From: an uncultured Spirochaetota bacterium
GTDB taxonomy: Bacteria > Spirochaetota > Spirochaetia > SZUA-6 > Fen-1364
Assembly (NCBI GenBank): GCA_963820525.1
Contig: CAWGAA010000001.1
Coordinates: 2,294,203 to 2,358,202 of the forward strand
Length of the DNA: 64,000 bases
Reading direction: 5' to 3'
Of this stretch, positions 4,502-61,502 are shown in pieces. Below the pieces are notes generated by a model. That model was not told where the DNA came from and searched no databases. It saw only the letters and a list, made by a program, of their open reading frames with translations. Each line of letters starts with the position of its first letter. Within the stretch, counting starts at the first letter, position 1. A program made the translations under genes and the position numbers.

Positions 4502-4580
4502 GATACGGTGAGCGGCATCGATTGTAAAGCAAGGCTTCTCTCGCGCACGAATGACGAGCTCACCTTGACAGCGGGGGCCG

Positions 4581-4594
4581 CCGCTGTTTCCATG
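4581..4594. promoter_or_regulatory. Perfect 14-bp palindrome GTTTCCATGGAAAC in the divergent ygfK / TrpB-like intergenic region.
   Basis: Read directly. Sits 6 nt upstream of the 4600 start codon, ~90 nt upstream of the ygfK start, and 13 nt downstream of a TTGACA at 4563..4568. Confidence 0.35.
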
Positions 4595-4599
4595 GAAAC

Positions 4600-29395: not shown

Positions 29396-29429
29396 GACGA
29401 CAGCCCGGGGTGAGCCCCGGGCTGTCGTC
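29396..29429. terminator. Bidirectional intrinsic terminator hairpin between convergent genes.
   Basis: Perfect 15-bp GC-rich stem GACGACAGCCCGGGG-tgag-CCCCGGGCTGTCGTC. Confidence 0.6.
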
Positions 29430-29442
29430 CGTATCATCTCTC

Positions 29443-32400
29443 TTACTGTTCCTTCTTATGATAGACCAGATTGAAGCGGCTCCCCGCATACCCGATGGCG
29501 ATGTCCGCGGATTGCGCAACTCCCGCGACGTAGCGGCCGATGTTCAGCGTAGAGCTGGTCACGATGTTCGTTCTGTGGTCGCGCACGGGATCGTTCACGG
29601 GGATAGTACCGTATTCCCAGTCGTCGGCGCTCGATCCGGTCCCACTCTTCACCCACGCTATCTTCAATCCACCCAGGGTGCCGACTGAAGAAGCGTTCTC
29701 GTACGATACGTACGGTATGGCGGTAGTTCCAATATACATCAGGGAAATCCTGCTCCAGGGCCCAACCGATTCTACGGAGTCGATGGTTACCGGGGCATCG
29801 AACGTATATTGCACCCCGGCGCCGGTCCCATCAACGTCATGACCATGGATGAAGACGAGGTTCCCGTCCGCGTTCTGGAAGGTCATAATGAACAGGTCGC
29901 CATACGTCGAAGATGCCGCGTCGTTGCTGTCCACCACCATGCTGACGTAGCTTCCCAGGAAGCTGTTTACGGGCTGGATGAGATCGATCTCCCACTGATG
30001 AGTAGCGCTCGGAGCGTAGGGGGCGGTAGCATTGAAATTCCCGACGGGTTGCGTGTTCCAGCCGCGGGCAATCTTCAGCGTCTTGTTGGTGTTGCTGTAG
30101 TACACGATGACGGGAACGCCGTCATCCGGGTCTATGCCGATATCGCTCCACAACCCGACGTCCTCGCTGGAGGCGTACTTGTAGTCAGGGGCTGCGCCGG
30201 CCAGGAAATCGTAGCCATCCACGACGACCTGGTTGTCGGTGAGGTGGTTCTGTCCGATGAACGTCCCCGTTCCGCCGGTGACCACCCCGTATTTCAGGCA
30301 TTTGCTCCACCCGTCGTAGTACGAGATGTACTTGACGTCGTTCGCCGGAGCGGCTCCCACCTTCACCGTGAACCGCGGGTTCTTGAACTGGAAGAGCATT
30401 TCATCCTGGCCGTCGGAGTGATTCGCTGGAGGAGGATCCGAGTTGCCTTCCCGCTCGATTTGCCGTGAGCTTCCCGTGTCGATGAAAGAGTTGAGACCCT
30501 GCCATGTCCCGGTCATATTCTGGTTTTCCAGCACAACGGAATGCCTGACGTCTACTCCTGCGTTGTTGCGGACGAACAGATCCGTATACTCGGCCGGGTC
30601 GACACCGCTCCAGATTTCGGTAGCGGCGCCTCCATAGGAGTTCGGCATGCTGTAGTACGACGCGCCGGAGTTATAGCTGGACCAGGCGCCGTAGACGTGG
30701 CTATTGGTGGGATTGATCGACATTGACGGCCACTCGGGTGCATCAGAGCCCGCGAAATAATCCCCGACGTCGAACACTGACATGTAGCGGTCGTCGTCCC
30801 AGAGGCCCGAACCGCCTTCGTTGTTATATTCCGCAGAATTGGAGTCGGTATTGTTAATGGAGGGCTGGCCGTTGACAACCACCTTCAAGTAGCCGGAGTT
30901 CACCATTTGCGTTCCGGTGAAGGTGAGGGAGGTATACGGCGATCCACTGCCGCTCACGGTCACAGTATTCTGCTGGACGGAGACCTTTACATCAGCGCCG
31001 TCGCTGGTGAAGTCGACCGCAGGGCCGCCGGAGGTGAGCGATACCTGGAAGTAATTCGCGGCCGTATTGACGACATAGTATCCGACGTTCGATGAGATCC
31101 CTGTCGGAAGCGTTGTCGCGGTAATCCACACTATCGTGCCGTTGGCGAGCCCGTGCGCTGTGGCATTCAGTCTATTGTCTCCATTGGTTGCGACGACGAG
31201 GAACGGCGTGCGGTTGATCGTGACGGTGGGAGTGTCGGTCCCGTCGCCGAGGTTGAATCCGGTCATGGTAAGGTTGGTCTCGCCCGCGTTCACGAGGAAC
31301 TTCCCATACTTTGTGCGGTTCGTCGGATACGGGCTCTGGCGGGTGATGCTCGTGATGTACGGAACCACGTCCACCTGGTAGGCGGGCTTGTTCGGGGGCA
31401 GGGTAATGGAGTAGCTCGTGCTGCCTACCGCAACCGGGACCGCAAGCTCGATGACGCCGCTTCCTGAGTCATAGTCCGCTACCGTGGTGTTGGTAGAACC
31501 GACGGTGATCGGCAGGTTGTCCCAGAGGGTCGTTCTACCCTGGAGATTCACGTCCGAAATGTGGGTCGTGTCCGCGCGCGTGCCGGTCCCGCTCAGCGTC
31601 GTGTTGTCCGCCGTCACGGCTGAACGGGTGGCTGCCTTGTCCTCTGCCACGATCCTGATGTTCTGATCGTTCACAGCGATGTGGGAGATCCGCGCCGAGT
31701 CCCAATCCAACCGCCAGACAACCGAGTGCCCGGCCTGCGAGAACGTGGAGGACACCACCGTGAACTTCCAACCGTTCGTGCCAAAGGTGTCTGACGGCAC
31801 CATGAACCCGTTCATACTGGTCCAGTTCGCGGGCGGGGAGCCCAAGGGATCGTAGTTGGCGATCCGGTAGTATGTCTGGCCTCCGATGCTGGTGGTGGGG
31901 ATGGTCGCGGCGTGCGGGAAGGTGAAGTTGTCGATATGCATCCAGATGTAAACCACTCCCTGATCGTCGCCCGTCGTGCCTCGTATGGATATCTTCCCCG
32001 AAACGTCGGGATCCGAATCGTCGATTCCCGCGAGCTCGATGTGCCCGTTTGTTTTCAAGTTCAGGTACAACGAATTGTCCGAGGCGCTGTTCCAGAAGAA
32101 GTTGTTGAGATAGGCCACCGGAGCTTTCGAGTCCGTGACCTTGATCTTGCAGACGATGTCCCTCTGGATGTGCTGGCTGTCGGTGAGCCTTGTCGTCTCC
32201 TCGGTGGTATCCCAGATGACGGATCGGAAGGTCCTCGTCCCGTCCGTGATGGCCGAAAGGGCCGTGGCATCCAGGAGTAGGGAAGTGATCGGCGTGCCGG
32301 TGCCGCCGTTTCTTACGACGTAGGTTCCTACTGCCGAGAGGCTTCCGGTGTTCGGGCCCGCGCTCACCTGGGTCTCCAGAATCCCGTTTCCGCCCGTGAT

Positions 32401-35400
32401 CTCGTACAGGATGTACATCGGAGCCGCTTTCACCTTGTAGCTGGTGGAGACCGAGGTCAGGTACGTGACGGGGTTGGTGCCCTGCGTGAAGAGGAACTTC
32501 TCTCGCTCAGTGCTGCTGGGCGTTTCATCGATGGACCCGTTCTTGTCCAGGTCCGTTCCCAGCCACATGGCGCCAAGCTGAGGCCCGCTGTTCTGCACGG
32601 AGGTGGCAATTTGATAGTGGGCGGCGTTCCCCGCTTCATCGTAGACGACGTAGTGGATCTCGATGGGCCCGTCCGGGATATTCGCCGAGTTGACGTCCAC
32701 GTACCAGTCGTAGGTGTCTCCCACGGTCTGCCTGAGCTTCTCCACGTAGCCGTCGCCGTCGTCGTTGAGCACGGAGGCACCGTCGTGCGACTCCGTTATG
32801 TTCTTGTGATCGATTGAGATCGCCAGGTCTATGGAGTACGCCGTGAGCCCCTGGTCCACGACCCCGTCCGCCCAGGTGATTGTGCCGCTTCCAGGGGTCC
32901 AGGTGTCGATTGTCCTGATGGTGCCGCCGATCGCGATTTTCTGACCCTTGTTGATCAAAGCGGCCGCCGGCGCGGCGATAAGGCTTGCGTCCACAAGGCT
33001 CGTCTGCGAGGGTCGCGTCCCGGTGCCCGTCCGCACGGGCTCGTATCCGCTGAAGGCGAAGTCGCTCAAATACGCCTTCGTGTTGCCGGCCAGGGGGTTG
33101 TACATGCGGTCGTTGGCGGGGTTCCCCATGCCTCTTCGGATGAAGTAGACCTCGACCCTGTCCACGTCGGAGCCTTCATCGAGAGCGCTCCCCGTGAGCT
33201 TGCACCATCCGTTGTCCTGAACCATGAACTTGGTGAGGTTGTCGAAATCCGGTCCTGTAGGCGCCGTGGGCGGCTTGGTGTCTATGGTGATCCGCATGTC
33301 CAAAGAGCTGGACTTGGGCTGCGCCGCCACGTCCACGGCGGCAAGAGTGAAGTTGAGCGGGACGACGGAGTTTCCCGGAGAATCGATTTCGACGTTCAGG
33401 TCTATCCGCTTGTAGAGCCCGTTCGTGTATGGGGGAACGGACGGGGTAACCAGCGTGAATGAACCGGTGTCCCCGGTGTAGACGCTGCCGTTCCAGAAGA
33501 TCGACTTCGAGATGGGGGCGGAAAGCGACACGCTGGACAAAGCGGATTCGTTTTCAATGCTCCCCTTGAGGTACCAGTTGCCCTTAATATACATTCCCGC
33601 GGTATATGTAACCGTGGTGGTGGGATCTCCCACTTTTTCCAGATACAGGGGAACGGTGGAGCCGATCTTCGGTACGTTCTTGTCCACAAGAATGGTCCTG
33701 GGCTGTGACCACGGCCCGAGGGTCCCGTTGATGTCCTTGGCCCGGACGCGGAAGCTGATCGGATTGGGCGTCTCGCCCGAGGGATCGAATTCCTGCGAGG
33801 AGTTGATGACTTCGTACCAGTTGTTGGAACCGATCACCGTGTGGCCGTTTCCGCCGTTGTACCAGTCCGTGCCGCCCGCCGTGTCGGCTGCGGTAAACTG
33901 CCCGTCATTGTTGCAGTCGATCTGCATGGCGACTTCCGCCACGCCGTCGTCGTCGATGGCGCTTCCATAGATGCGGATGGAGCCGCCGAGGGTCATGTTG
34001 GCGTCCGGATAGGAGACGCTCGCTACCGGTTTGTCGCCGTTGGGGTCTATCCTGAGGCTGTAGGGGTAGATGGTGAAGTCGGTCTCGCCGATGGACACGT
34101 CTCCCGACCAGGAGACGGTCCCGCTGGCCGGAGTCCACCCCGTGATGAGCCGCGCGTTGTTTCCGATGAACACGACCTGGCCCACCGCAATCCTGGTATT
34201 GTTCTGGATGGCCGCGGAGCTGAGGCTGGTCGGGTTGGAGCGCGTCGCTCCGGCGCCCGTAATGGGCAGGCTCTCCGTGCTGTTGCCCGCCTTGTCGGTG
34301 GCTCTCAAGACCATGGGGAACACGAAGAGGTCTACCCCGGTGTACGAATCGTGAATGGCGGAGACGTCGGTGTACACCTCGTATTCCTGGCTGGTTCCCA
34401 CCGCCACATCGGCGCCCGTCCAGGTGACGGTGCCGGCGGCCGGGGTCCAGGTTGCGATTACGCGATATGCGCCATTGATCTTGATCGTATTGCCCACCGC
34501 GGCATTGGGATTGCTGACCAGGGCTGCGGCGGTGAAGCTCTTCTCCTCTCCGGTCGTCCTGTCCACCAATCCCGAGTACATGGAGGAGTAATTGTCGATC
34601 TTGCTGGGGTTCAGGAAAGGTATCTCCCAGGTGTAGACGGTGCCTCCAACAGCCGTTGGAGACTGGCTCGTGTAGTTCTTGCCCAGTCGATACATGACGG
34701 TGTCCAGCCCGGAGCCGGAGTCGCTGGCCGTCCCTTTCACGGTGACCTCGCCGTTGACAATCGCGGCATTCACCGGGGTCAGGAAGCCGAGGCTCGGGGC
34801 GGAGTTATCCACAAGAATGGTCCGGGTTGCCGTGGAGGCCAGGCCTGATCCGTCCGTGACCGTCGCAACGACGTCCTTGGCGCCGTCGGAAAGCGCGGTA
34901 ACGTTCGTGACCCCGGTTTCATACGGGGTGTATCCCGGCCACGCCACGGGGCTTCCCACGACGCTTGCCGTTACGTTTCCGATTCCGGGGATGGCCACGA
35001 CAACGGAAGCGACGCCGTTTTCATCCCGCGCGGAGTACCGGATGTTGAACCGTCCCGTGGGCCCGCCAAATGGCATGTTCGTCGTGAGGCTCTTGGCGGC
35101 CAGGTGCACGAAAACGCCGCTTCCCGCGCTGGTGATGTCCACCACGGGGCCGCCCGATGTGGCAGAGACCTGGATCTGGGTGGACGTTGGGACCGCGACG
35201 ACGAAGTAGGTGGTGTTTGCCGAGATCCCGCCCGGAAGCCCCGTTGCGCTGAAGGTTACCGTGTTGCCCGAGGCAAGCCCGTGCGCGGAATCAGTGGTGA
35301 TAATGTCGGAGGTGTCGTTGGCCGTTGCAGGAAGACAGGTTTCGATGGTGATCGTCGGATCGACTTCAGGAGTCTTCGTGTCCACCTTGAAGGTCACAGA

Positions 35401-41400: not shown

Positions 41401-43635
41401 CGACGTGAAGGTGACGGTGGGCTTCACCCTGTCGTATACGACGGTCCGGCTCACCGCCGCGGCGGTCTTGCCGGCCACGTCCGTGACGGTGATCGTATAC
41501 TCGAAAGTTCCGTCGGTCTCGGCGCCGGGCACGCTCCAGCTCCAGGCCTGGCTCTTTCCGCTCAGGGCCTGGTTGAGGACGGTGGTGGAGGCCCCGCCGT
41601 TCTTCTTCTGCGTGATGGTGATGTTGGCCAGCGCATTGGTGTCGGCGGCGGTACCGCTCAGGCTGAAGGCGATATTGCGATACGCGGGAGTCGGCCCGAT
41701 GGAGGTCTCGGTCAGGGTGGGGTTGGCCTGGTCGAGGAAGAAGGATCGGATTGCAACGGCGCTCTGGTTTCCGGCAAAGTCGACGGCAACGGCGCGCACC
41801 GTGTACTGGCCTTCCGTGGCGAGCGGAAGCGTCGTGACCCACGAGGCGTTTCCGGTGAGGCGGTTCCACGTCGTGAAATCGGCCGGCGGGGTCGCGGAGG
41901 AAAGCCCCAGCCACAGGTAGATGTAGCGCACGTCCCCCGTGTTGTCGGAGGCGGTTCCGCTGATCGTCGTGCTGTTGCCGGTGACATACGAACCGGCGAG
42001 CGGCGAATCGATGGAAACGGTGGGGGCGCTCTCGTCTATTATATAGTGGAGCGTACGCCGCGCGATGGTGCCGGCGTCGTCGGTGGCCTGCAGGTCGAAC
42101 CAGATGTCGGTGTTTCCGGCGGCAAGAGGAACCTGGACATAGTACCAGCCCGGATCGACGCTGTCGGCGGCCGAAACAGTCCCGGCCAGGGCGGCCCCGC
42201 CTGAAGTGAGGGACGATGAGGCCGTGAAGGCGTTTATCGCATTGTCGTCGGTTGCATGGGCGCGAATCTCGATTCCCGACTGCCCGCTTCCGCCCAACGG
42301 TCCCGCCGTGAAGGTTTTCCGCGTGATCAGGGAGAGGTCGTCGGGCAGCACGCTGTCGATGCGGGGCGCCCCCGAGTCCACGAGGAAGCCACAGGTGATC
42401 TCGGTCGTGTTGCTGGATCCCGTCGATTTGGCGCTCACCTTCACCTTGTAGCGGCCGCTTGAGATGTAGGAGCCGCCCACCTTGGGCTCGATCTGGAAGC
42501 TCACGGAGCTCGAGATCGAGGTCCACGTCACGGCCCCTGCGTCGACGTTCGGCAAGGCGGGCCACGTGGTGACGGTGGAGGGGATGATCCATGCCTTGAT
42601 CGAGGTGCCGTCCACCGGCGTTCCGGCGGGACCCGGATTCGCATAGCCGGTTATAGGCACCTTGTTCCCGATGACATTGCTGGTGATCGCCAGGCTGGGG
42701 TCGAGGTTGGAGAAGTGAAGGACGGGAAGCGTTGCATCTGCTATCTTGTCGAAATCCCCGAACTTGGGGCTCCCCGTGATGCCGATGCGCAGGGCCTGCA
42801 GCATCGCGAAGGTGATATTGCCGGCCGTGCCGCTCTGGGTCTGATCCACCTTGCCGATCTCGTCGGTGGCCGGAAAGAGCAGACCGGGTGTAAGGGCGGC
42901 CCAGATATCCTGGGAATGGTAGTAGTAGGTGTTTGTGTTTCCCGCCTTGTCGGTCGCCTGAATGGCGTACCTGTAGGTTTGATTGTCGGGACGGGCGCTC
43001 GTGATGAAGCGGGTGGACCACGTGTTGGTGCCGTCCGCCAACTTGGTCTCCAACACGCTGTTGTCTGGCGCCAGAAGCTGGACATCCACATCCACAATGG
43101 GGGATCGGTCCCACACCTCACCCTTGACGTCGATGTAGTCGCTCACGATGGGCTTGGAGGTGCCATAGCCCTGGGGCACCGTCACCAGCACCGTCGGCGC
43201 GATGTTGTCGATATAGGCAAGGAGGAGGGCCTCGACTTCCTTGCCGGAGCCGTCCGTGGCGGTAACCGTGACTTTCTGCTCCCCGTCGGGCAGGTTGTCC
43301 GCGCTTGCCGTGCCGGTGGGGATGTCGATGGTCCATGCACCGCCGGAGACCGTGATGTTCTTGGTGACGGCGCCGGATGACCCGACGTATCGCACGGTAA
43401 CCTTGGCCAGGGAAAGGTCGTCCGCAGCGGTACCCTTGACCGTCAGGGGCCCCTTGACGTACGAGTTCTGCTGGGGCGAGCTGATCGCCAGGGAAGGCGG
43501 ATTGATATCGACCTTGTCTCCCAGGCCGGGCTTCAGCAGGTCGCAGGTATTGAGAGACAGGGACGCCAGGATGATGAGGGACACCCGCGCCAATGCTCGG
43601 AGGCGCGCAAATTCACTTTGGCTCCTCTTTTTCAT
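29443..43635 (-). CDS. Giant (~4,730 aa) cell-surface protein with a lipoprotein-like signal, more than 20 tandem bacterial Ig-like domains, five 'HGL' repeat modules, and a non-Ig C-terminal ~600 aa.
   Basis: Start reassigned to ATG 43635 (MKKRSQSEFARLRALARVSLIILASLSLNTC) with GGGAGGAGG SD. ~100-aa Ig periodicity (VDTTxPTV..SxPxxxxxxxG...SGTAxD). Alternating two-domain supermodule (...FxIDQxNPxL / TAADTNALAxIxVxQKKNGG). Confidence 0.8.
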   Translation of the reverse strand: MKKRSQSEFARLRALARVSLIILASLSLNTCDLLKPGLGDKVDINPPSLAISSPQQNSYVKGPLTVKGTAADDLSLAKVTVRYVGSSGAVTKNITVSGGAWTIDIPTGTASADNLPDGEQKVTVTATDGSGKEVEALLLAYIDNIAPTVLVTVPQGYGTSKPIVSDYIDVKGEVWDRSPIVDVDVQLLAPDNSVLETKLADGTNTWSTRFITSARPDNQTYRYAIQATDKAGNTNTYYYHSQDIWAALTPGLLFPATDEIGKVDQTQSGTAGNITFAMLQALRIGITGSPKFGDFDKIADATLPVLHFSNLDPSLAITSNVIGNKVPITGYANPGPAGTPVDGTSIKAWIIPSTVTTWPALPNVDAGAVTWTSISSSVSFQIEPKVGGSYISSGRYKVKVSAKSTGSSNTTEITCGFLVDSGAPRIDSVLPDDLSLITRKTFTAGPLGGSGQSGIEIRAHATDDNAINAFTASSSLTSGGAALAGTVSAADSVDPGWYYVQVPLAAGNTDIWFDLQATDDAGTIARRTLHYIIDESAPTVSIDSPLAGSYVTGNSTTISGTASDNTGDVRYIYLWLGLSSATPPADFTTWNRLTGNASWVTTLPLATEGQYTVRAVAVDFAGNQSAVAIRSFFLDQANPTLTETSIGPTPAYRNIAFSLSGTAADTNALANITITQKKNGGASTTVLNQALSGKSQAWSWSVPGAETDGTFEYTITVTDVAGKTAAAVSRTVVYDRVKPTVTFTSLTPVIGTNTVNGIVTLTVAVSDTTGLATVWYRYGDSGAFAEITTNKTTPSLVIDTTTFTDLAVTNAWIRAIDLAGNTQEVAQALAVDQSSDKPVISLTNLSAARNTPALGWGNLLESNAKVQGSATDDDSLDSSTIEISVDAAASWAAVSQKGPSGKVVSFEHNIASLAEGMHYLHIQASDLATAKMGLPFASNAIGPVYFVVDKYPPSTSVTSPAQDAVVNAGFAISGTASDANGLADLNSDTVSDVEVSTNGGASWTVLSAPGGAWSYPVAVDTTGHTFDGSHTYKFRATDRFAKTTVADYRFVVDTTGPTLAVSAPAGSSWLSGSTSTATGNASDGTGTGVAAVYWWAGDSLATPPALLSSWNTATGTTFWSGLMDVSGLGEGNRRLSVKAVDAAGNWSATVQRDFGIDQANPVLTVTNIATGVVGRSALFPMDGTAADTNALASIKVEQKKGTGTFVEVYNQGISGSQPPQPWSVTGLPRDPATPADSLLADGLFEYRATLTDVAGRTHVVTRTVQIDTTAPTVGISNPGVGAWLSGTAYNASGTATDPLSGVATVEWSTNGTTWQSATGTSSWSATLDLNTLGEGQKTLSIRATDNASNTSGVATRTFQIDQSNPSLSGISLATGLQFKNAVFTLDATAEDTNALANVTVTQSKNGGTAIEVFNQNYSVTSQAWSLTGLPRDPAAPGTTLLSEGNYEYVITVRDVVGKTTSATRTAMVDTSSPVLTITDPTSGGWADAANYTIRGTVSDGAGKGVTQLAWSLDNATWTPIALTGLAWNATIDVSGGGEGPKTLYMKASDGLNPDATSSVAFSYDLSAPSIIEDQIATPNLVYRTADFTIGGTISDTNGVVSVKVEASRDGGAYATVDTQPKTGKSNVPWSYPKTVDNTGTHNDDGEYEYRITVTDAAGKTTTVSRLVRIDTTKPVVAVTAPGASSWTQGPTMTISGTVAEASQIASVEYAVDGGAYALAAGGSNWAATVDLDTDGEGPDTGLAEANHVLHVRATDAAALVSLTVDVAFAVDQNAPTVTVGSPAVNSYVTGANLAVNGTGIDLNGLSTWDHDSNPGTPEVKYIEVFHPGTPGTWEKMQVDDTAIGVTADHVAGIFTSAAPHGLSAGQVVYFGGTTLPGGLDGGTPYYVLYLDPTTFEVSSSSGGAKVDFASDGAGVTASRMSWADSIPTASIGEGMSKKVSIRATDIYGRSTSVDVPIKVDTAAPTAAIGSPADGDWKKGAFSISGTASDATSGLSKVQVAVMLSGQPGSGDWKDASGTATWSYTYDSSSFTDDRTIYVRAVDNAGNVTSPLASQAVHLDQVPPTLSDITFQVGTNPANPYTPGVTVYTNTAFTLAGAAADNGSLVNVTVEQSTDNGLTYTNVATITTTPETWSWGRDATWVTAASEGAYLYRAISHDAAGSASVSSIYTLVIDKSLPNTPVITAPVLTDVFSGISLSAAATASDAGPAGLQTVEMKLSTDVGWTASVYNGTAWTATITLGSEGQKTLQCQAKDKAGNISGTASVTFWKDDSPPGGSITAPTANAYRNGAVTVSMTASDTNGVSSIAVSLADAALHASNGVLTRTGGDVYNGTWDDSAAPLSVSGLDDGVCTLTATLTDVAGRTSTATRNISLDRVKPTVSFLTPAASATTNKTISVTGTSSDNVAVQSLTLHIVKDTTVTANNLTDIFTTTAANNLSAGDVVSFTGTTLPTGISAATSYYVISENLDSTHFEVSATPNGARLDFSTDGVDVKAPLVALTLSPTGSYSWNLAALDTTAADVVNASTLVSGTKYGITLRAMATDIAGNKSAYNAQHPEYTDRSFFIDQQSDRPTIKLTNVNPNGTTTLKLTNTVYGTVSDDDGVTKLEIGEAAFDGVTVTPNSGSDVFATGSAHGLVAGTAVYFGGTALPAGISANTRYYVISEGLDATHFEVSQTLDGTKLDYTSDGTDVTISAFQTVTADASWSYDASSGDGTKRLYFRVTDASSTVFTTDLSNEPRIQDAADDTSVTFKVDTKTPEVDPTITIETCLPATANDTSDIITTDSAHGLASGNTVTFSATGLPGGISANTTYFVVAVPTSTQIQVSATSGGPVVDITSAGSGVFVHLAAKSLTTNMPFGGPTGRFNIRYSARDENGVASVVVAIPGIGNVTASVVGSPVAWPGYTPYETGVTNVTALSDGAKDVVATVTDGSGLASTATRTILVDNSAPSLGFLTPVNAAIVNGEVTVKGTASDSGSGLDTVMYRLGKNYTSQSPTAVGGTVYTWEIPFLNPSKIDNYSSMYSGLVDRTTGEEKSFTAAALVSNPNAAVGNTIKINGAYRVIATWTPAAGTVTWTGADVAVGTSQEYEVYTDVSAIHDSYTGVDLFVFPMVLRATDKAGNSTESLPITGAGATRSNPTSLSSAAIQNNTRIAVGQVVFIGNNARLITGWTPASGTVSWSGDVSIGETDFTIYPYSLRIDPNGDKPVASVSYPDANMTLGGSIRIYGSAIDDDGVAEVAMQIDCNNDGQFTAADTAGGTDWYNGGNGHTVIGSNNWYEVINSSQEFDPSGETPNPISFRVRAKDINGTLGPWSQPRTILVDKNVPKIGSTVPLYLEKVGDPTTTVTYTAGMYIKGNWYLKGSIENESALSSVSLSAPISKSIFWNGSVYTGDTGSFTLVTPSVPPYTNGLYKRIDLNVEIDSPGNSVVPLNFTLAAVDVAAQPKSSSLDMRITIDTKPPTAPTGPDFDNLTKFMVQDNGWCKLTGSALDEGSDVDRVEVYFIRRGMGNPANDRMYNPLAGNTKAYLSDFAFSGYEPVRTGTGTRPSQTSLVDASLIAAPAAALINKGQKIAIGGTIRTIDTWTPGSGTITWADGVVDQGLTAYSIDLAISIDHKNITESHDGASVLNDDGDGYVEKLRQTVGDTYDWYVDVNSANIPDGPIEIHYVVYDEAGNAAHYQIATSVQNSGPQLGAMWLGTDLDKNGSIDETPSSTEREKFLFTQGTNPVTYLTSVSTSYKVKAAPMYILYEITGGNGILETQVSAGPNTGSLSAVGTYVVRNGGTGTPITSLLLDATALSAITDGTRTFRSVIWDTTEETTRLTDSQHIQRDIVCKIKVTDSKAPVAYLNNFFWNSASDNSLYLNLKTNGHIELAGIDDSDPDVSGKISIRGTTGDDQGVVYIWMHIDNFTFPHAATIPTTSIGGQTYYRIANYDPLGSPPANWTSMNGFMVPSDTFGTNGWKFTVVSSTFSQAGHSVVWRLDWDSARISHIAVNDQNIRIVAEDKAATRSAVTADNTTLSGTGTRADTTHISDVNLQGRTTLWDNLPITVGSTNTTVADYDSGSGVIELAVPVAVGSTSYSITLPPNKPAYQVDVVPYITSITRQSPYPTNRTKYGKFLVNAGETNLTMTGFNLGDGTDTPTVTINRTPFLVVATNGDNRLNATAHGLANGTIVWITATTLPTGISSNVGYYVVNTAANYFQVSLTSGGPAVDFTSDGADVKVSVQQNTVTVSGSGSPYTSLTFTGTQMVNSGYLKVVVNGQPSINNTDSNSAEYNNEGGSGLWDDDRYMSVFDVGDYFAGSDAPEWPSMSINPTNSHVYGAWSSYNSGASYYSMPNSYGGAATEIWSGVDPAEYTDLFVRNNAGVDVRHSVVLENQNMTGTWQGLNSFIDTGSSRQIEREGNSDPPPANHSDGQDEMLFQFKNPRFTVKVGAAPANDVKYISYYDGWSKCLKYGVVTGGTGTFIGQNHLTDNQVVVDGYDFLAGAAPDYKYASSEDVGLWSDIGIDPDDGVPVIVYYSNTNKTLKIARGWNTQPVGNFNATAPYAPSATHQWEIDLIQPVNSFLGSYVSMVVDSNDAASSTYGDLFIMTFQNADGNLVFIHGHDVDGTGAGVQYTFDAPVTIDSVESVGPWSRISLMYIGTTAIPYVSYENASSVGTLGGLKIAWVKSGTGSSADDWEYGTIPVNDPVRDHRTNIVTSSTLNIGRYVAGVAQSADIAIGYAGSRFNLVYHKKEQ

Positions 43636-43828
43636 ACCGGCCTCCTCCCGATGACGGCGCTCCCGGTTTCCGGCAAGTCGAGGCTGTTTCCCTGTTCTTA
43701 ACCTCGCCTGCCGCCCGCCCACATACAGTATCGTCAGCTCGCTCACCGGGCCCACATGGGCAAACCATTAAAGTCTACCCCGTTTTTCTTCGATTTCATG
43801 AACAAATTCCTTAACATCCGTTAAGCGC

Positions 43829-43834
43829 TATAAT
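43829..43834 (+). promoter_or_regulatory. TATAAT -10 box in the AT-rich divergent intergenic region between the two giant genes, with inverted repeat TTAACatccGTTAA at 43811..43824.
   Basis: Read directly. The -35 is weak or unclear. Confidence 0.4.
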
Positions 43835-43911
43835 CCCCCGAAACGTCGAGAATTGATCAGGAGCACGCGGCCCAGCGGGGGAATGAAAAGCAAGGATGCG
43901 CGAGGTATGAT

Positions 43912-46900
43912 ATGGAAGACATGAGTGGAGCGAACCGTCGAATCTTGAAGAGATGTCTCCTCTCCCTCTCTTTTTTGCTCGGCTTTCAGGCAGCCTCTTT
44001 CGCCGCAGGGTCGAAGGAGGCCGACTTCAAGAAGACGGACGGCCGCGACAACTGGGAGTACACCTATGACATCTCCACGATGGCGCCCGGAAAGTACAAC
44101 CTGATCGTCGAGGGCAAGGACAAGGCCGGAAACGTCTCCACCGCGGGCCCTTACAACGTGTATATCGATCCGAAATCCGACCTGCCCGTGGCCGGCATTT
44201 CCAACCCGACGCCGGGCCTGCGCGTGGGAGGAGATCTCCACATCGTCGGCACCTGCGTGGACGACGATGGAGTGGACCGCGTCGAGGTCAAGCTTGACGA
44301 CGGGGAGTTCGTCAAGGCGGACGGCAGGGAGTACTGGTCCTACTCCCTGGAGGCGGCTTCCATGGCCGACGGCCGCCACACGGTGAGCGCCCGCGGCGTG
44401 GACATCAACGGCCTGGTGGGAGAGCCGGTGAGCGTTTCCTTCAACCTCGATACGCACAGGCCGGTTATCGCCATCGTCTCCCATAAGAGCGGGACCATCG
44501 TATCGGGGACGGTCACTCTTTCAGGAACCGCCACGGATGCCAACGGGATCAAGAGCCTCGCCTGCAGCCAGGACAACAAGAAAACATTCCGGGAGCTTCC
44601 CCTCCGGCGGGGGAAGGACGACACCTCGGCGCAATTCGAGCTCACCGTGGATACCAAAAAGCTCGCCGATGGCCCGTACGCCTACTGGTTCGGCAGCCTC
44701 GACATGACGGGATCCACCGGATACACGGCGTTTCTCCTGTTCGTGGACAACACGGGCCCCTCCATCGAAATCTTGAAGCCGAAGAGCGACGAGAAGGTGA
44801 GCGGCAGGGTCGCCGTCATAGGCAAGATCACGGAGCGCATCGGCATCAAATCGTTCTCCTACGACGGGGGTGAGGCAAACAGGGGCGCCATAGAACTGGC
44901 CCCGGGCAACCCCTACTGGATCCACGAGTTCGATTTTTCCAAGCCGCGCGCATCCTCCGCGCGCATCCTCTTCACCGTGGTCGACCTCGTGGGAAACACA
45001 ACGACGAAGGATCTCACCGTGCAGATCCTCCCCGACGAGGCGGACCTTCCCGTCGTGACGCTCCGCTCGCCGGCGGCGAACGGGGTCTATCCCGCCGATG
45101 TCCTTTTGTCCGGCTCGGTCCGCGACGACGATGGAGTGAAGGCAGTGCAATACTCCATCGACGGAGGGAAACCCGTCGTGCTCGATTCCCGGGAGGCTTT
45201 CTCGGCGATGCTCACGGAGCTTCCCGCCGGAAAGCACAAGCTGGCCATCCATGGAGTCGACACCAACGACAGACCGGGAAAGGATGTCACCGTCGAGTTC
45301 ACCTCCCGGGGAAAACCTCCGGCGGTCACGGTGGAAAGCGTTTCCAGCGGGAAAGAGAGCGTTCCCTTCAGGCCGGGCTTCGAGATAGCCCGCGACAAGG
45401 GAGCGGTCCTCGTCGGCAGGATATCGACCCTTGGCCAGCTGAAGAGCCTGGAGTGCTCCTTGAACGGCGCTCCAGCGCAGAAGCTCTCCACCAAGGGCGC
45501 CGACAAGGCCGGTGAGGCTTCATTCGAGATCCGCATCCCCCCGACGGTCTCCTTCGGCATGGTGACGCTTTCCGTGCGCGCGACGGACCAGTCCGATCAG
45601 GTGGGCGAGTTCAAGAGCATCATCCACGTGACCAACTACTCCAAGCGCAACATCGAGCCCGGCATCTACTTCCTGCAGACGCGCGCTCAAGCGGATGGTA
45701 CGATTCTCTTGACTCCTGAAATGCCCCTGGTGGGGATCTTCACCGGGGAAGAAATACGCTCCGTCAGCATCGAGCCTCCCTCCGACGTGCTTTCCATAGC
45801 CTTGGACGGAGAGAAGATCACGGTGAGCCCGCGCGGAACGGGCGCTGCGGGCCCCCTCCACGTCAAGGTGGTATCGGCCAAGGGGCGCGTCTTCACCTCC
45901 CCCGAGCTCGGATTCCAGGCCGACACGAGCGGAGGCGCCGCTTCCGCAGCCATCGATTTCTCCCGCATCGTCCAGGGAAAAGACTCCTTCGAGTATTCCC
46001 CGGGAATGCGTCTCGTGATCGATAGGTCGACTCTCCTCACGGGGACTGCCGCGATTGCCGCGCAGGTGAAATCCGCCGAGTATGCCCTCCAGGGCGGGCC
46101 CGCGCGAGGCTTCGGCTTGAAGAAGCTCGACACGGCAGGCCAGTACGGATTCGAAATACCCCTTCCGCCCGAACTCCCGTACGGAAAGATCGATCTGCGC
46201 ATGGCCGTTACGGATGCAAGCGGTCAGAAAACCGTGCTTTCGACCTCTTTCTTCCGGGTTGAAAAGGAAAGCGGGACGGACAATGACGGGGAAGGCATTT
46301 ACCTCGCCGACTCCCGCATCGACTCGACGGGGGCGCTTCTCCTCGCTCCCGGCGAAAGCATCGGCGGATACTTCAACGGCCGTCCGGTCAAGGAAATCAG
46401 GCTCGACCCCGACACTCCGCTTCTTTCCGCCGCGGCCGATGGCAACTTCATCCGGCTCTCCGCGGTCAAGGAAGGGATGCCGGCGAGCGTCCGCCTGCGG
46501 CTGACCACCGTGGACGGCGACTTCTTCCAATCGGATCCCTACACGGTCCGCTCGGACGCCGGGGCGCCCGCCGTCACCGTGGACTCTCCCCGGACGGGAG
46601 ACTGGGTGGGGGCACGGCTGAGGCTGAAGGGATCAGCCTCGGATCCCAACGGAATCGTGAAGCTGGAATACGCCCTGAACTCAAGCGACGCCTTCACCGC
46701 AATCCCGCCGGCCGGGGGGAGCGGGTCGTCCGGCTTCGATATTCCCCTCGATCTGGCGGACGTACCGGACGGGGACGTGGGCTTGACGGTCCGCGCCGCA
46801 GACGGCGCAGGGCGGCAGAGCGTGGTCTCGCTTCGGTTCATGAAGGACTCCGAGGGGCCGGCGATCTCGCTGGTAACTCCTCCCGCCGAAGACCCGGTGA

Positions 46901-49230
46901 ACGGCCTCATAACGGTCACCGGGACGGCCACCGACGCTGGAGCGGTGGATCAAGTGGAGTTCAGCGACGACGGCAAGACCTACGCCGCCGTGACGGGGAC
47001 CGGGGTGTTCAGCATGCCTCTGGACCTCTCCAAGTACACCAAGCTCCCGGAGGCGTTCTACTTCCGGGCGAGGGACAAGAGCGGCAACATATCCGTATTC
47101 ACCGCGGCGCTGAACGTCCAGCAGGAGACCGACATACCTACGGTTCAGATCCAGATCCCGCAGGACGGGGAGGTGCTCAGGAGCGATTTCACCATCTCCG
47201 GGATGGTGTTCGACGACGACGGAGTGGGGTCGATCTCCTACCGAATCGACCAGGGGCCGATCCAGAAGCTTCCCGGCTCCAACAGCTTCGACATCCCCCT
47301 CCGCCTTGAGGACATGAGCGACAACGAGCACGCGATCGAGGTGATGGCGGAGGATCTCAACGGGGTGCCCAGCAAATCAGCCACGTCGACGTTCAAGATC
47401 TCAAAGGCGGAGCCGACTTCGCGCCTGACATCTCCGGCTTTGAGCACCACGACGCGGGGCGTCATCACCCTTGCCGGAGAGTCGATGGACAAGAACGGCA
47501 TCAAGGAGATATCCATCTCCTTCGACAACGGCCAGACCTTCAACCTCGCCGAGGGCAAGGAGAAATGGGCCTACCGTCTCGATACCCAGATTCTCAAGGA
47601 CGGCACCTACTCCATCATCATCAAGGCGGTGGACGCGTACGGGACCGAGGGGCTTTTCTCGACGCTTCTCAACATCGACAACCAGCCGCCGCAAATCATC
47701 CTGGACACTCCCAAGGACGGCGCGCCTGTTACGGAAAGCCTCGCAGTCGATGGACGCGCCATCGACAATATCGACCTTACCTCCCTGAAGGCCACTCTTG
47801 CGCCGCTGGGCTTGAAAGGATCAAGCCCTGCCTCCTGGGATCTTCCGCGGAAGGGGCATTTCTCCTCGGCGCTGGATCTCAAGGCCGTCGCGGCCGGATG
47901 GTACAACCTAACCCTGGAGGCAACGGACAAGGCGGAGAACTCGGCCAAGATCTCCAGAAACGTGCTCGTCCAGGAAAAGAAGGCCGTGAACACGGTGCAG
48001 ATCCTCTTCCCCGTGAATGGGGAAAGCATTTCGGGATCGTTCACCCTGGCGGGAAGGGTGCAGTCCTCCGAGAAGGTCACGGAGGTCGGCTTCAGCGTGG
48101 ACGGTCAGGCCGCCGGAACCATTCCCATGAACGACAACGGCTACTTCACAATGGCCGTCACGCCGGAATCCCTTCAGGACGGGACGCATTCCCTCGAGGC
48201 GCAGGCCAGGCTCGCGGGAGACCTCGTGATCCGCTCGGAGCCTCGAAGCATCGTCTACAGGAAGCTGGGGCCGTGGATCAGGATCACCAGCAACGCACCC
48301 GGGGATTTCGTCACCTCCCGCCCCTTCATCACGGGAGAAGCGGGCTTCACCTCGGAGCCTGCGGATCCCGCGGACAAGGAAGCCGTGGCTCGCGCGCAGC
48401 GGGAGCGCGATGCTCATCGGATCGAGCGCATCGAGGTGAGCCTCGACAATGGGAAGAGCTTCACGGCCGTTTCGGGGCGCGAGAAGTGGCAGTACAGGCT
48501 GGAGACGCAGAACTATCCCGACGGAGAAGTCAGGTTCATCGCACGGGCCGTTTTTACGGACGGATCGACGGCATTCGACGAAACTCTCCTCACGATCGAC
48601 GACACGCCGCCCCAGGTTGTCCTGCTCTCCCCGCGTGAGGAAGGCCGATTCAACGGGGAGATCTCTCTGCTCGGTACGGCTCATGACGAGAATGGAATCT
48701 CCCAGGTGCGCGCCGCGGTCCGCCAGGGAGACAAGGCGAACTACGAAGTGCCCGGCTTCATCCAGGGCCTCTACTTCGAAGGCCACGCGCTTGGAGCCAC
48801 CGAATGGGACTTCGGCATCGGGCTCACGTTCTTCGACGACAACGTCAAGCTCCAGGCCCAGGTGGGCACGGCTCCCGAAGGGAGGTTCTCGGGCCTGGTC
48901 ATTGGGACGAAGCTTCTGGCCAACATCTTCCGCCTCCCCTTCAGCTATTTCCTGGGGCCCGACTGGGACCTGCTGTCCCTGTCCCTGGCCATCGGCGCCA
49001 ACTTCTCCTACGTCACCAACTCGGGCAGCGCGATCGCCTTTACAGACAAAGGCCTGATCATCGGAGGAGTCGTGGGTCAGCTGGAGTTCCCCATCGTGAA
49101 GCTCAAGTCGTGGCCCCTGTTCAGGACATACTCGCTGTACACGGAGTACCAGCTCTGGTTCATCTCATCGGACATCAGCGCGGGCTTCGTGAGCCGGATG
49201 GCTTTCGGCGCGCGGATCGGACTGTTCTAA
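43912..49230 (+). CDS. Large (1,772 aa) secreted Ig-like repeat protein with a beta-strand-rich, aromatic-terminated C-terminal region (possible outer-membrane anchor).
   Basis: Signal peptide (RRILKRCLLSLSFLLGFQAASFAAG). Repeated ~95-aa modules (SPxxGxxVxGxVxLSGTAxDDDGV). Last ~170 aa have alternating hydrophobicity and end ...GARIGLF. GAGGT SD. Confidence 0.75.
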   Translation: MEDMSGANRRILKRCLLSLSFLLGFQAASFAAGSKEADFKKTDGRDNWEYTYDISTMAPGKYNLIVEGKDKAGNVSTAGPYNVYIDPKSDLPVAGISNPTPGLRVGGDLHIVGTCVDDDGVDRVEVKLDDGEFVKADGREYWSYSLEAASMADGRHTVSARGVDINGLVGEPVSVSFNLDTHRPVIAIVSHKSGTIVSGTVTLSGTATDANGIKSLACSQDNKKTFRELPLRRGKDDTSAQFELTVDTKKLADGPYAYWFGSLDMTGSTGYTAFLLFVDNTGPSIEILKPKSDEKVSGRVAVIGKITERIGIKSFSYDGGEANRGAIELAPGNPYWIHEFDFSKPRASSARILFTVVDLVGNTTTKDLTVQILPDEADLPVVTLRSPAANGVYPADVLLSGSVRDDDGVKAVQYSIDGGKPVVLDSREAFSAMLTELPAGKHKLAIHGVDTNDRPGKDVTVEFTSRGKPPAVTVESVSSGKESVPFRPGFEIARDKGAVLVGRISTLGQLKSLECSLNGAPAQKLSTKGADKAGEASFEIRIPPTVSFGMVTLSVRATDQSDQVGEFKSIIHVTNYSKRNIEPGIYFLQTRAQADGTILLTPEMPLVGIFTGEEIRSVSIEPPSDVLSIALDGEKITVSPRGTGAAGPLHVKVVSAKGRVFTSPELGFQADTSGGAASAAIDFSRIVQGKDSFEYSPGMRLVIDRSTLLTGTAAIAAQVKSAEYALQGGPARGFGLKKLDTAGQYGFEIPLPPELPYGKIDLRMAVTDASGQKTVLSTSFFRVEKESGTDNDGEGIYLADSRIDSTGALLLAPGESIGGYFNGRPVKEIRLDPDTPLLSAAADGNFIRLSAVKEGMPASVRLRLTTVDGDFFQSDPYTVRSDAGAPAVTVDSPRTGDWVGARLRLKGSASDPNGIVKLEYALNSSDAFTAIPPAGGSGSSGFDIPLDLADVPDGDVGLTVRAADGAGRQSVVSLRFMKDSEGPAISLVTPPAEDPVNGLITVTGTATDAGAVDQVEFSDDGKTYAAVTGTGVFSMPLDLSKYTKLPEAFYFRARDKSGNISVFTAALNVQQETDIPTVQIQIPQDGEVLRSDFTISGMVFDDDGVGSISYRIDQGPIQKLPGSNSFDIPLRLEDMSDNEHAIEVMAEDLNGVPSKSATSTFKISKAEPTSRLTSPALSTTTRGVITLAGESMDKNGIKEISISFDNGQTFNLAEGKEKWAYRLDTQILKDGTYSIIIKAVDAYGTEGLFSTLLNIDNQPPQIILDTPKDGAPVTESLAVDGRAIDNIDLTSLKATLAPLGLKGSSPASWDLPRKGHFSSALDLKAVAAGWYNLTLEATDKAENSAKISRNVLVQEKKAVNTVQILFPVNGESISGSFTLAGRVQSSEKVTEVGFSVDGQAAGTIPMNDNGYFTMAVTPESLQDGTHSLEAQARLAGDLVIRSEPRSIVYRKLGPWIRITSNAPGDFVTSRPFITGEAGFTSEPADPADKEAVARAQRERDAHRIERIEVSLDNGKSFTAVSGREKWQYRLETQNYPDGEVRFIARAVFTDGSTAFDETLLTIDDTPPQVVLLSPREEGRFNGEISLLGTAHDENGISQVRAAVRQGDKANYEVPGFIQGLYFEGHALGATEWDFGIGLTFFDDNVKLQAQVGTAPEGRFSGLVIGTKLLANIFRLPFSYFLGPDWDLLSLSLAIGANFSYVTNSGSAIAFTDKGLIIGGVVGQLEFPIVKLKSWPLFRTYSLYTEYQLWFISSDISAGFVSRMAFGARIGLF

Positions 49231-51613: not shown

Positions 51614-52723
51614 CTATGGGTACTGTTTCTTCAATCTTCCCAGCATCCCGAGGTATTCGAGGCCCGTTACGGGCTCATCCGGCTTGAAGCTCACGCCGTC
51701 GGGAAGATCCATGATCTCCCGCTCCACCACCCCCAAAGCAGCATCGAACCAGGGGGCATCACGGGGGATGTCCGAAACGGGGCTGACTGAGTATTTGAGG
51801 CTGTATTTTTCCAGAAGCTTCGGGTCCCTCTCCATGCGGGCCACGATTCCCCAGAGAAAGAAGGCCACCTGTTTCCTCGACACGGTCGAGTCGAGGGGGG
51901 CTTCCGGCTCGAGGAGGATTCCTGCCTGATCGAGGGCGGAAAGAACCGATTCCGCCGCCGGCGTGGGATTGGTCGAGAGAGCGGAGAGGAGGCGGGTTTC
52001 GGCAAAGACCCGCTCAACCATGGCGCGAACGGTAAGCTGCCCTTCGAGGGTCTGTGCCTGCTCGGGGGGCGTGATCGAGCCCGTGTCCCTGGCGGCTTGC
52101 GCCATGGAGAATGCCCGGTCGCGGTCTGCGGCATAGAGATCCCGATAGCGGGGATCCAGGCCCCGAAGCCCTTCATCCAGGTCCTGGGCAGCCTCCGCAT
52201 AGCGTCCCGCCCTGAAAAGCTCCTCGCCCCTCTCGCAGAGAATTCGGGATTTCTTCTCCGCCTTCTTCGCACCCAGCTCGAGGACGGCAAGGCGCTTCGC
52301 AGCATCCGCCTCCAGGCCGGCGCGAACGAGCCAGAGGCCCTCATCCGTGTCGGCGAGCACAGCGGCGGCATCGGCGAACCCCATGGCGGCAGGGCGATCT
52401 TTGGCGAGCAGCGCCGCCTCGCCGCGCAGCGAGGCGCAGCGCGCCTGCACCCTGCGGTTCAAGCCGGGCTTTCCGGCAAATCTCGCGAGCTCAGCCTGGA
52501 GCGCCGCCAAGCCGGCAGCATCGGGAGCGAGCCGCAGATCGAGGAGGCGAAGCTCAAGGGAATCGAGGGCTGCCTGCTCCTGTTCTCCCGAGCTTTGCGC
52601 GATGAGGTCTGCGGGGCCGCTCTGGCATGAGGCGAGAGCGAGGAGGATGCCCGCGGCAAGCGATGCAAGGAGAGTGATCGCGCCAAGCGGCGCCTTTTGA
52701 CAGCCGGAAACGCGGCGGGTCAT
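51614..52723 (-). CDS. Lipoprotein with TPR-like helical repeats, function unknown.
   Basis: Lipobox LALASC. Ala/Leu-rich repeats. 4-nt overlap with the upstream gene. Confidence 0.45.
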   Translation of the reverse strand: MTRRVSGCQKAPLGAITLLASLAAGILLALASCQSGPADLIAQSSGEQEQAALDSLELRLLDLRLAPDAAGLAALQAELARFAGKPGLNRRVQARCASLRGEAALLAKDRPAAMGFADAAAVLADTDEGLWLVRAGLEADAAKRLAVLELGAKKAEKKSRILCERGEELFRAGRYAEAAQDLDEGLRGLDPRYRDLYAADRDRAFSMAQAARDTGSITPPEQAQTLEGQLTVRAMVERVFAETRLLSALSTNPTPAAESVLSALDQAGILLEPEAPLDSTVSRKQVAFFLWGIVARMERDPKLLEKYSLKYSVSPVSDIPRDAPWFDAALGVVEREIMDLPDGVSFKPDEPVTGLEYLGMLGRLKKQYP

Positions 52724-61493: not shown

Positions 61494-61502
61494 CACGTCT
61501 CC

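Follow-up and report, generated by a model that had tools for sequence, protein, structure and literature searches.

A divergent pair of giant envelope genes

We analyzed a 64,000-nucleotide stretch of contig CAWGAA010000001.1 from an uncultured Spirochaetota bacterium (hereafter "the window"), in which two divergently transcribed genes encode giant proteins built mostly from immunoglobulin (Ig)-like domains: gene A, for a 4,730-amino acid (aa) predicted lipoprotein, and gene B, for a 1,772-aa Ig-chain protein with a predicted C-terminal outer-membrane barrel (Table 1). The open reading frame (ORF) of gene A spans 29443–43755 on the minus strand, and the ATG at 43635 was taken as the start because a GGGAGGAGG ribosome-binding site precedes it and a signal peptide opens the resulting protein. 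A protein identical to A, with the same start, is already present in the public protein collection, as is the sequence of B, and a cluster look-up placed both on a single 3.2-Mb public contig. Both ORFs, their Ig-like repeats, and their export signals (lipoprotein-type for A, with the unusual lipobox LSLNTC; a signal peptide for B) had been proposed in an initial annotation made from the sequence of the window, and all were confirmed here.

The same annotation described the intergenic spacer as an AT-rich control region of 270 bp carrying a TATAAT box and an inverted repeat. While both elements are present, the spacer measures 276 bp and its G+C content is 0.554, i.e., 55%, against 0.627 for the window; only the ~156 bp on the B side (43756–43911) are AT-rich (0.474), and the 120 bp on the A side (43636–43755) reach 0.658. 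The inverted repeat TTAACATCCGTTAA occurs once in the window, where 0 copies would be expected by chance, and was not found in any of the 82 related loci searched; a regulatory role for it is unsupported, with nothing in its favor. A consensus promoter scan did not score the TATAAT hexamer, found no good −35 partner for it, and chose a different, weaker site.

Table 1 Features of the A–B locus and its surroundings (window coordinates; residue numbers refer to protein A or B).
Feature	Coordinates	Strand	Basis or remark
Gene A, predicted giant lipoprotein, 4,730 aa	29443..43635	minus	ORF, translation, strong Shine-Dalgarno, Ig-like Pfam families; stop codon 29443–29445
A signal peptide and lipobox, residues 1–31 (MKKRSQSEFARLRALARVSLIILASLSLNTC)	43543..43635	minus	hydrophobic region, invariant Cys
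A conserved N-terminal core, residues 32–680	41596..43542	minus	Big_7, Big_13, Big_3_2 matches
A expansion region, residues 681–3170	34126..41595	minus	~205-aa periodicity, self-comparison
HGL module 1, residues 1846–1918	37882..38100	minus	nested in Ig domain; weak PHROGs 4711, 7765, 38233 (tail fibre) matches
HGL-type module 2, residues 2420–2492, motif NNL	36160..36378	minus	self-comparison; the only copy with no PHROG match
HGL module 3, residues 2618–2690	35566..35784	minus	phrog_9370 (tail fibre protein), E 2e-4
HGL module 4, residues 2771–2843	35107..35325	minus	phrog_4711, E 2.7e-10; phrog_9370 (tail fibre protein), E 6.7e-9
A conserved C-terminal core, residues 3171–4235	30931..34125	minus	kept in short orthologues
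HGL module 5, residues ~4147–4219, immediately before propeller	30979..31197	minus	phrog_4711, E 7.6e-10; phrog_9370, E 6.8e-8
A putative C-terminal beta-propeller "head", 495 aa, residues 4236–4730	29446..30930	minus
Gene B, Ig-chain protein, 1,772 aa, predicted C-terminal outer-membrane barrel	43912..49230	plus	ORF, Pfam
B signal peptide, ~residues 1–31, signal-peptidase-I type	43912..44004	plus	hydrophobic region, ASFA/AG-type site
B N-terminal half Ig domain, residues 36–86 (second half of fold)	44017..44169	plus	Big_13 positions 57–101 of 102
B Ig chain, residues 87–1561	44170..48594	plus	13 family-Ig-model matches, ten essentially full length
B pre-barrel half Ig domain (first half of fold) and linker RxGDKxxYxVP	48595..48747	plus	Big_7 positions 1–39 of 70
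B predicted 8-stranded outer-membrane beta-barrel, residues 1613–1772, ending ...GARIGLF	48748..49227	plus
Divergent spacer between A and B, 276 bp	43636..43911	.	AT-rich only in 43756–43911
Inverted repeat TTAACATCCGTTAA	43811..43824	plus	one copy in window, 0 expected by chance
TATAAT hexamer facing gene B	43829..43834	plus	read from sequence
Hairpin, perfect 15-bp stem, GACGACAGCCCGGGG-TGAG-CCCCGGGCTGTCGTC	29396..29429	.	read from sequence

Protein A: a predicted lipoprotein with an expandable Ig-like stalk

Protein A starts with a positively charged N-terminus, a hydrophobic region, and a lipobox in which Cys31, the predicted lipidation site, is followed by the conserved motif LLKPGLGDKVDINPP. 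Across >25 A-like homologues from other genomes, the cysteine is invariant at the same place after a hydrophobic stretch, the residue before it is T, S, A, G, or N, and the motif [FL]xxGLG[DE]xVD[LI]xxP follows. Since variable residues precede an invariant cysteine throughout these homologues, a lipobox such as LSLNTC appears typical for the A family, and the pattern as a whole indicates that A is a lipoprotein anchored through its N-terminal cysteine.

Beyond the signal, the Pfam families matched by A are all Ig-like (Big_7, Big_13, Big_3_2, Big_3_3, and Big_3_4), with E-values for such matches in A and B as low as 1e-85. NCBIfam "OmpL47-type barrel" matches were also obtained, to a 68-position domain model and within the Ig-repeat region; they were read as Ig-like repeats, and a membrane barrel in A was rejected. 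When fragments of A were compared with the whole protein, an internal period of ~205 aa emerged between residues ~500 and ~2350, corresponding to a two-domain supermodule, and "VDxxxP" inter-domain linkers recur every ~100 aa as far as residue ~2500. This agrees with the alternating two-domain arrangement of ~100-aa repeats put forward in the initial annotation, and suggests that A holds ~30 beta-sandwich (Ig-like) domains in total.

Comparison with orthologues divides the protein into two conserved cores and an expansion region between them. The N-terminal core, made of Ig-like domains and a ~250-aa repeat-free stretch, aligns collinearly with the start of A orthologues, both short and giant, at 27–31% identity, and the C-terminal core, which comprises beta-rich domains, two WTPxxGTxTW modules, a weak TIG match, and the fifth of the tail-fibre-like modules described below, is retained in short orthologues at 25–29% identity across 300–400 aa. 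The intervening region, consisting of ~205-aa supermodule repeats and the other four tail-fibre-like modules, is missing from these short orthologues (~1,770–1,880 aa), which correspond to A[1–680] joined to A[~3170–4730]. From these alignments, giant A forms are short forms with a repeat expansion between two conserved cores, and the length of the stalk differs ~threefold among species through gain or loss of the two-domain supermodule.

A separate type of module, ~45 aa long and with the signature G..I.I.G..R.I..WTP..GT.TW....V, was noted three times in A, at residues ~3033–3090, ~3137–3195, and ~3549–3605 (window ~32890–34450, minus strand), the first lying just upstream of the C-terminal core near residue 3063. 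The segments of A that hold these modules have no Pfam match.

Tail-fibre-like modules and a propeller-like head

Self-comparison of A also revealed five copies of a ~70-aa module, here termed HGL after its signature HGLxxGxxVxF...LPxGI...YYV...F.VS...GG..VDF and nested within the Ig domains. Four of the five match internal segments of phage families, including the "tail fiber protein" PHROGs 9370 and 38233, and a weak DUF6385 match at the fifth copy is the sole Pfam hint for this module type. The HGL module thus appears to be common to phage fibres and to a giant cellular protein.

The last ~650 aa of A, of which ~600 had been singled out in the initial annotation, are indeed distinct from the repeat array. 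Besides one tail-fibre-like module and a weak match to TIG, they include a domain of 495 aa that matched no Pfam family, either in the window protein or in 9 homologues. The structure predicted for this domain, for which too few homologues were available, reached a predicted local distance difference test (pLDDT) score of 47, and only its general fold was used. A fold search with this model returned propellers generally, with lectins, integrins, and sialidases as neighbors and with lectins above or level with sialidases. As for a possible sialidase function, two distant protein matches carry BNR_4, and the model is too weak for inspection of an active site. In a HMMER scan of 1.84 billion representative proteins, the profile of this domain was found in 577 protein clusters; among the 150 best matches listed, the domain is C-terminal in every protein long enough to judge, and the proteins that carry it range from ~1,300 to 6,133 aa, many of them measuring 2,800–4,800 aa.

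Protein B: an Ig chain ending in a membrane barrel

Protein B displays a conventional signal peptide, and neither a lipobox nor a conserved cysteine was found in the signal region of B or of its homologues, which share the same signal pattern. The Ig chain that follows includes an internal duplication of ~210 aa at residues ~441–870, as seen by self-comparison, and leads to the barrel through the linker RxGDKxxYxVPxFIQG, which is largely invariant in a 53-sequence alignment; no helix of more than four residues precedes the barrel. The barrel itself occupies the last 160 aa, with eight strands contiguous within the last 155 aa and a terminal phenylalanine. In the predicted structure, these strands form a closed antiparallel barrel resembling small outer-membrane barrels, the closest structures being OprF-N, NspA, OmpA, PagL, and OmpW. 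The model therefore indicates that the C-terminus of B is an outer-membrane anchoring barrel with short loops, in line with the anchor predicted in the initial annotation.

At the sequence level, this barrel falls outside the curated families searched: a 178-aa segment had no Pfam match at E ≤ 1 and no NCBIfam match, and no PDB sequence matched the family profile. It is nonetheless encoded in 459 stretches of a species-level genome collection, and the locus comparisons below rest on the best 80 of these. Nearly all of the 80 are labelled Spirochaetota, two being unclassified bins, and they include Spirochaetaceae, Treponemataceae, Rectinemataceae, Salinispira, Alkalispirochaeta, Oceanispirochaeta, and Sediminispirochaeta; Leptospira, Borrelia, and Brachyspira were not found among them. 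Wherever the available sequence sufficed, the barrel formed the C-terminus of an Ig-chain protein of 1,340–2,470 aa, and 20 B homologues align to B end to end and contain only Ig-like Pfam families. Because the alignment covers the full length and the barrel is always C-terminal, B represents a single orthologous family, and not a random Ig-repeat protein. Pfam searches of B and the 20 homologues detected neither an OmpA_C peptidoglycan-binding domain nor any POTRA, DUF560, or autotransporter domain.

A few atypical entries were considered separately. Two apparent stand-alone barrel proteins on long contigs (P0071 and P0088) were rejected as a separate family and attributed to fragmentation in long-read assemblies with frameshifts. 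The long-read metagenome assemblies L001 and L002 show both giant genes split up into numerous short called genes, so that barrel fragments resemble stand-alone 130-aa proteins. The "neuraminidase" label on P0060 (HPX48601.1), a fragment of a B homologue from Treponemataceae, was dismissed as an annotation artefact, as no sialidase domain was found in the 20 full-length homologues; the other member of its 90% cluster is named "Ig-like domain-containing protein". Finally, a Treponema genome bin (L076:3-8428) carries tandem B paralogues of 1,390 and 1,446 aa, each ending in a barrel, and no A-like gene was found in the 5.7 kb after them.

Conserved linkage of A and B

We next considered how often A and B occur together. 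Loci were taken as informative when ≥1.5 kb was visible on each side of the B homologue (48 among the best 80), and a gene was called A-like based on the lipoprotein N-terminal core (30–37% identity), the C-terminal core, and/or the propeller (25–33% identity). In 33 of the 48 informative loci, the B homologue has an A-like gene directly beside it, and three gene orders occur: 24 tandems with A before B, in which the reading frames often abut or overlap, 8 tandems with B before A, and 1 divergent pair like that of the window. In 2 further loci, B is followed by the A-like gene at a distance of ~5 kb. Gene order follows the size of A, with A-then-B tandems encoding a short A (~1,550–1,880 aa), and B-then-A tandems a longer one, mostly >3,300 aa. 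Because A and B stay linked in three gene orders and in named groups that range from Treponema to Salinispira, this linkage provides strong sequence-based evidence that A and B are a functional pair, and the partnership first proposed from the window alone is thus supported by synteny.

No third gene recurs consistently with the pair around related loci. Sugar and multidrug ATP-binding cassette (ABC) transporters, a LolA-like protein, a penicillin amidase, and an SPFH protein were each considered as a third partner and rejected, being present in a minority of loci. At the two loci with a distant A (L057:6300-9250 and L074:11850-14620), exporter-type ABC genes (ABC_membrane + ABC_tran) lie between B and A.

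Complementary half Ig domains at the N-terminus and before the barrel of B

By profile coordinates, the Ig chain of B begins and ends with complementary halves of an Ig domain. When 52 B proteins were scanned with a 91-position Ig profile built from the family's own domains, the first match covered median model positions 42–82 and the last, adjoining the barrel, median positions 4–48, in 52 of 52 proteins each; the corresponding halves of the window protein cover positions 42–83 and 4–49. Internal matches behave differently, with 480 of 571 full length and only 6 half length. When the pre-barrel half was artificially fused to the N-terminal half, the product matched Big_7 positions 1–68 of 70 with 34.6 bits, above the curated cutoff, whereas each half alone scored below it; a native domain used as a control matched positions 1–70 with 46.9 bits.

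The halves of an Ig sandwich are interleaved within both of its sheets; on its own, neither is expected to fold. Since the half-domains of B are complementary, the chain would either close on itself or link head to tail with another, the two halves assembling into one Ig domain. The simplest reading of the half-domains is that the N-terminus of B returns to the membrane-proximal base, which in cis would give a closed loop of ~14 domains and in trans a head-to-tail row of barrel-anchored arches. A-like proteins, for their part, open with a complete Ig domain in the family model, and A is therefore not the supplier of the missing half.

Membrane topology and possible roles of the module

The explanation we favor, with moderate confidence, is that A is a lipid-anchored, length-tunable, ligand-binding fibre whose base is organized by B, a barrel-anchored and self-clasping Ig chain. 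The two genes constitute a conserved two-component cell-envelope module of Spirochaetota. B is exported through its ordinary signal peptide and fixed in the outer membrane by its OmpA/OprF-like eight-stranded barrel, and its free end would dock at the membrane-proximal base of its own molecule or of a neighbor. A extends from its predicted lipid anchor as a ~30-domain Ig-like stalk with the putative propeller at its tip, and its lipid-proximal N-terminal core would sit beside the base of B, so that B would serve as a membrane-embedded scaffold for A. As the length-tunable, ligand-binding element, A would most likely contribute to adhesion or to a fibrous coat on the cell surface.

Several points weigh against this explanation, the first of which is the geometry of the barrel. 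Eight contiguous strands place both barrel termini of B on one face. In the 53-sequence alignment, the connections on this terminus side measure 4 aa (FFDDN, majority frequency 0.91), 11 aa (0.63), and 8–12 aa (0.40), and two of the four loops on the opposite face vary in length (6–28 and 8–24 aa). Usually, outer-membrane barrels have fixed periplasmic turns and variable external loops. Because the terminus-side turns are near-fixed, with two of the three conserved, and the far loops are variable, standard topology would put the Ig chain of B in the periplasm, a poor fit to a surface coat. In addition, the remaining 13 of the 48 informative loci lack an A-like neighbor at the thresholds used, although sub-threshold A matches are present in part of them; contact between A and B is inferred from gene linkage, and the basis for the assembly of the split domain is a set of profile coordinates and no structure; and the C-terminus of A can be called, with low confidence (pLDDT 47), a probable beta-propeller and nothing more specific. 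The surface location that the initial annotation gave to A and B is therefore putative. A surface fibre or coat was nevertheless kept as the leading reading because of the variable length of A, its tail-fibre-type modules, its lectin/sialidase-like head, and the accessory taxonomic distribution of the module.

The alternative that survives best, which we consider unlikely but grant substantial weight, takes the standard topology at face value: the chain of B would hang into the periplasm, A would be attached either to the outer membrane, in its inner leaflet, or to the inner membrane, and the two would form a spacer, tether, or organizer between the outer membrane and the cell cylinder, e.g., at the periplasmic flagella or the cell poles. 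Such a periplasmic scaffold would account for the barrel termini lying on the side of the near-fixed turns and for the length-variable loops opposite, as well as for the fact that no machinery for translocation across the outer membrane was found encoded nearby. However, a protein that ranges from ~1,300 to >6,000 aa seems ill-suited to a compartment of fixed width, tail-fibre-type modules combined with a lectin/sialidase-like head are typical of proteins that bind external ligands, and the absence of Leptospira, Borrelia, and Brachyspira from the best 80 loci opposes a core envelope role. Spirochetes also place many of their lipoproteins on the surface.

Conversely, the surface-fibre explanation could be taken one step further, with the split-Ig clasp closing after export to build loops or rows of arches on the spirochete surface that hold A. 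This version would make B a novel type of protein anchored in the outer membrane and would require a novel way to place an N-terminal Ig chain outside an eight-stranded barrel, and we regard it as quite improbable.

We find it very unlikely that A and B are two independent Ig-repeat adhesins, merely neighboring or co-regulated without being coupled. Each protein does have its own export signal and its own membrane anchor, and independence would agree with the 13 informative loci without an adjacent A-like gene and with the locus that holds two tandem B genes and no A. Yet adjacency is kept from Treponema to Salinispira through three gene orders, often with abutting or overlapping frames, and unrelated genes would not be expected to survive such rearrangements together. 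Least likely of all is the export of one partner by the other, as suggested in the initial annotation, with B acting as a dedicated translocator or usher for A in the manner of TpsB, Slam, or an autotransporter barrel: tight linkage, often with abutting or overlapping frames, and the need for a surface-exposed A to cross the outer membrane with no other secretion genes nearby would favor it, but the eight-stranded barrel of B, with its short loops, resembles proteins that lack a polypeptide-conducting pore (OprF-N, NspA, OmpA, PagL, and OmpW), no POTRA, DUF560, or autotransporter domain accompanies it, and ~1,600 residues of Ig chain would be left without a role, all of which points to an anchor and not a translocon.

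Comparison with known surface systems

Among known spirochaetal proteins, LigA and LigB of Leptospira come closest to A in plan, with a lipoprotein signal, a long tandem Ig-like array, and, in LigB, a non-repeat C-terminal domain. However, Lig proteins have tandem Big_2 domains (PF02368) after the lipobox, whereas A has the lipobox and no Big_2 match was listed for it; A is also 2–4 times longer, and carries tail-fibre-like modules and a putative beta-propeller. We know of no barrel-anchored partner gene for Lig proteins, whereas A has a conserved one. By analogy, A probably works like a LigB-type lipoprotein adhesin without being a member of the Lig family.

The barrel of B has the same eight-stranded fold as OmpA/OprF, NspA, OmpW, PagL, and the small barrels of T. 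pallidum, without belonging to their sequence families, and its context differs from theirs. In OmpA/OprF, the barrel is N-terminal and a periplasmic peptidoglycan-binding domain comes after it, whereas the barrel of B is C-terminal, after 1,600 aa of Ig domains, and the eight-stranded barrels of T. pallidum are single-domain proteins (PMC8407342). A large repeat-rich part and a membrane barrel within one polypeptide are otherwise found in type V systems (type Va, intimin/invasin of type Ve, and Helicobacter Hop proteins of the proposed type Vf), and intimin/invasin also combine Ig-like repeats with a lectin-like tip. Yet no type V class fits B, because the 12-stranded barrels of type Va hold a helix in their pore, whereas B has eight strands and no Autotransporter match; type Ve barrels are N-terminal and that of B is C-terminal; and in Hop-type Vf proteins the barrel is interrupted after its first strand, which is N-terminal, with the passenger as an external loop, whereas the strands of B are contiguous and its mature N-terminus is a half Ig domain. 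Likewise, none of the Pfam families that mark two-partner secretion (TPS)/Omp85 systems, which pair a 16-stranded barrel and POTRA domains in one partner with a TPS domain in the other, was found in A, B, the scanned neighbors, or the 20 B homologues.

In its proportions, A is reminiscent of the giant repeats-in-toxin (RTX) adhesins exported by type I secretion systems (T1SSs), such as LapA, SiiE, MpIBP, and BapP, which are also very long, with probably Ca2+-stiffened Ig-like extenders and a ligand-binding far end, and whose length is likewise altered by repeat expansion; BapP even combines a propeller with Ig-like repeats (PMC12153261). Unlike these adhesins, A has no HemolysinCabind match and carries an N-terminal Sec/lipoprotein signal instead, and its anchoring would involve a lipid and a partner barrel, as opposed to a plug in a TolC-like pore. 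Finally, the split domain of B finds its nearest precedent in donor-strand complementation in chaperone-usher and type V pili, where an incomplete Ig fold is completed from elsewhere to give closed or polymeric assemblies. In these pili, however, a single strand is donated by a different subunit, whereas each end of B lacks roughly half of the fold, the halves reside in the same protein, and no chaperone or usher gene accompanies it.

Neighboring genes and other features of the window

Apart from two ORFs without a recognizable family, described below, the flanking genes scanned are ordinary and encode, among others, two solute-binding proteins, RraA, an amino-acid permease, Hsp20, a carboxypeptidase of the penicillin-binding protein 5 (PBP5) type, phosphate-transport proteins, and a CHASE2 cyclase. 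No T1SS, TpsB/two-partner, or Slam-type secretion genes were detected among the genes of the 64,000-nucleotide window scanned with Pfam/NCBIfam, the ABC genes being of phosphate or solute importer types. The initial annotation had considered this lack of adjacent secretion genes notable for a protein of such length; the observation stands, but it is not remarkable for a protein with a Sec/lipoprotein signal in a spirochete, as these bacteria show many lipoproteins on their surface without dedicated neighboring genes. Rfam and tRNA scans of the window returned no matches.

Downstream of B, two overlapping ORFs on the minus strand (51614–55380) encode an 886-aa protein bearing a membrane helix at its N-terminus and a 369-aa protein bearing the lipobox LLALASCQSG. 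Neither has a Pfam/NCBIfam match or similarity to A or B, and they may form an uncharacterized envelope operon. Further along, a 778-aa ORF (60825–63161, minus strand) combines an ABC ATPase domain (residues 322–477) with PhoU domains (from residue 573), and may represent either a fusion of PstB with PhoU or an ORF that was called too long. On the other side of the locus, the GACGACAGCCCGGGG-TGAG-CCCCGGGCTGTCGTC hairpin lies where gene A and the upstream solute-binding-protein gene converge, between their ends; its position is suggestive of a terminator, and no T-run follows it on either strand.

Significance for spirochete biology

Taken together, these comparisons indicate that the A–B locus is a real, conserved envelope module, for which limited literature searches found no published description. 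It is carried by free-living and host-associated spirochetes alike, in which it can occupy as much as ~20 kb in a genome of ~3 Mb. Three of its building blocks, i.e., the anchor barrel, the propeller-like head, and the split Ig domain, are new to the curated family libraries searched, and the first two are widespread: there are at least 459 genomic copies of the barrel, and the propeller is found in 577 protein clusters, with many proteins of 3,000–6,100 aa.

If the split domain assembles as suggested here, it would offer a simple natural route to closing or polymerizing a membrane-anchored chain, of interest for both envelope architecture and protein engineering. Cryo-tomography of Treponema primitia has reportedly revealed unexplained external "arcades of hook-shaped proteins", and, should the clasp on the cell surface prove true, arches of B could be their molecular identity. 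More generally, if the chains lie outside the cell, the module would display them at the surface behind a small barrel, by a new route; if they lie inside, it would be a very large scaffold in the periplasm, the compartment in which the flagella of these bacteria rotate.

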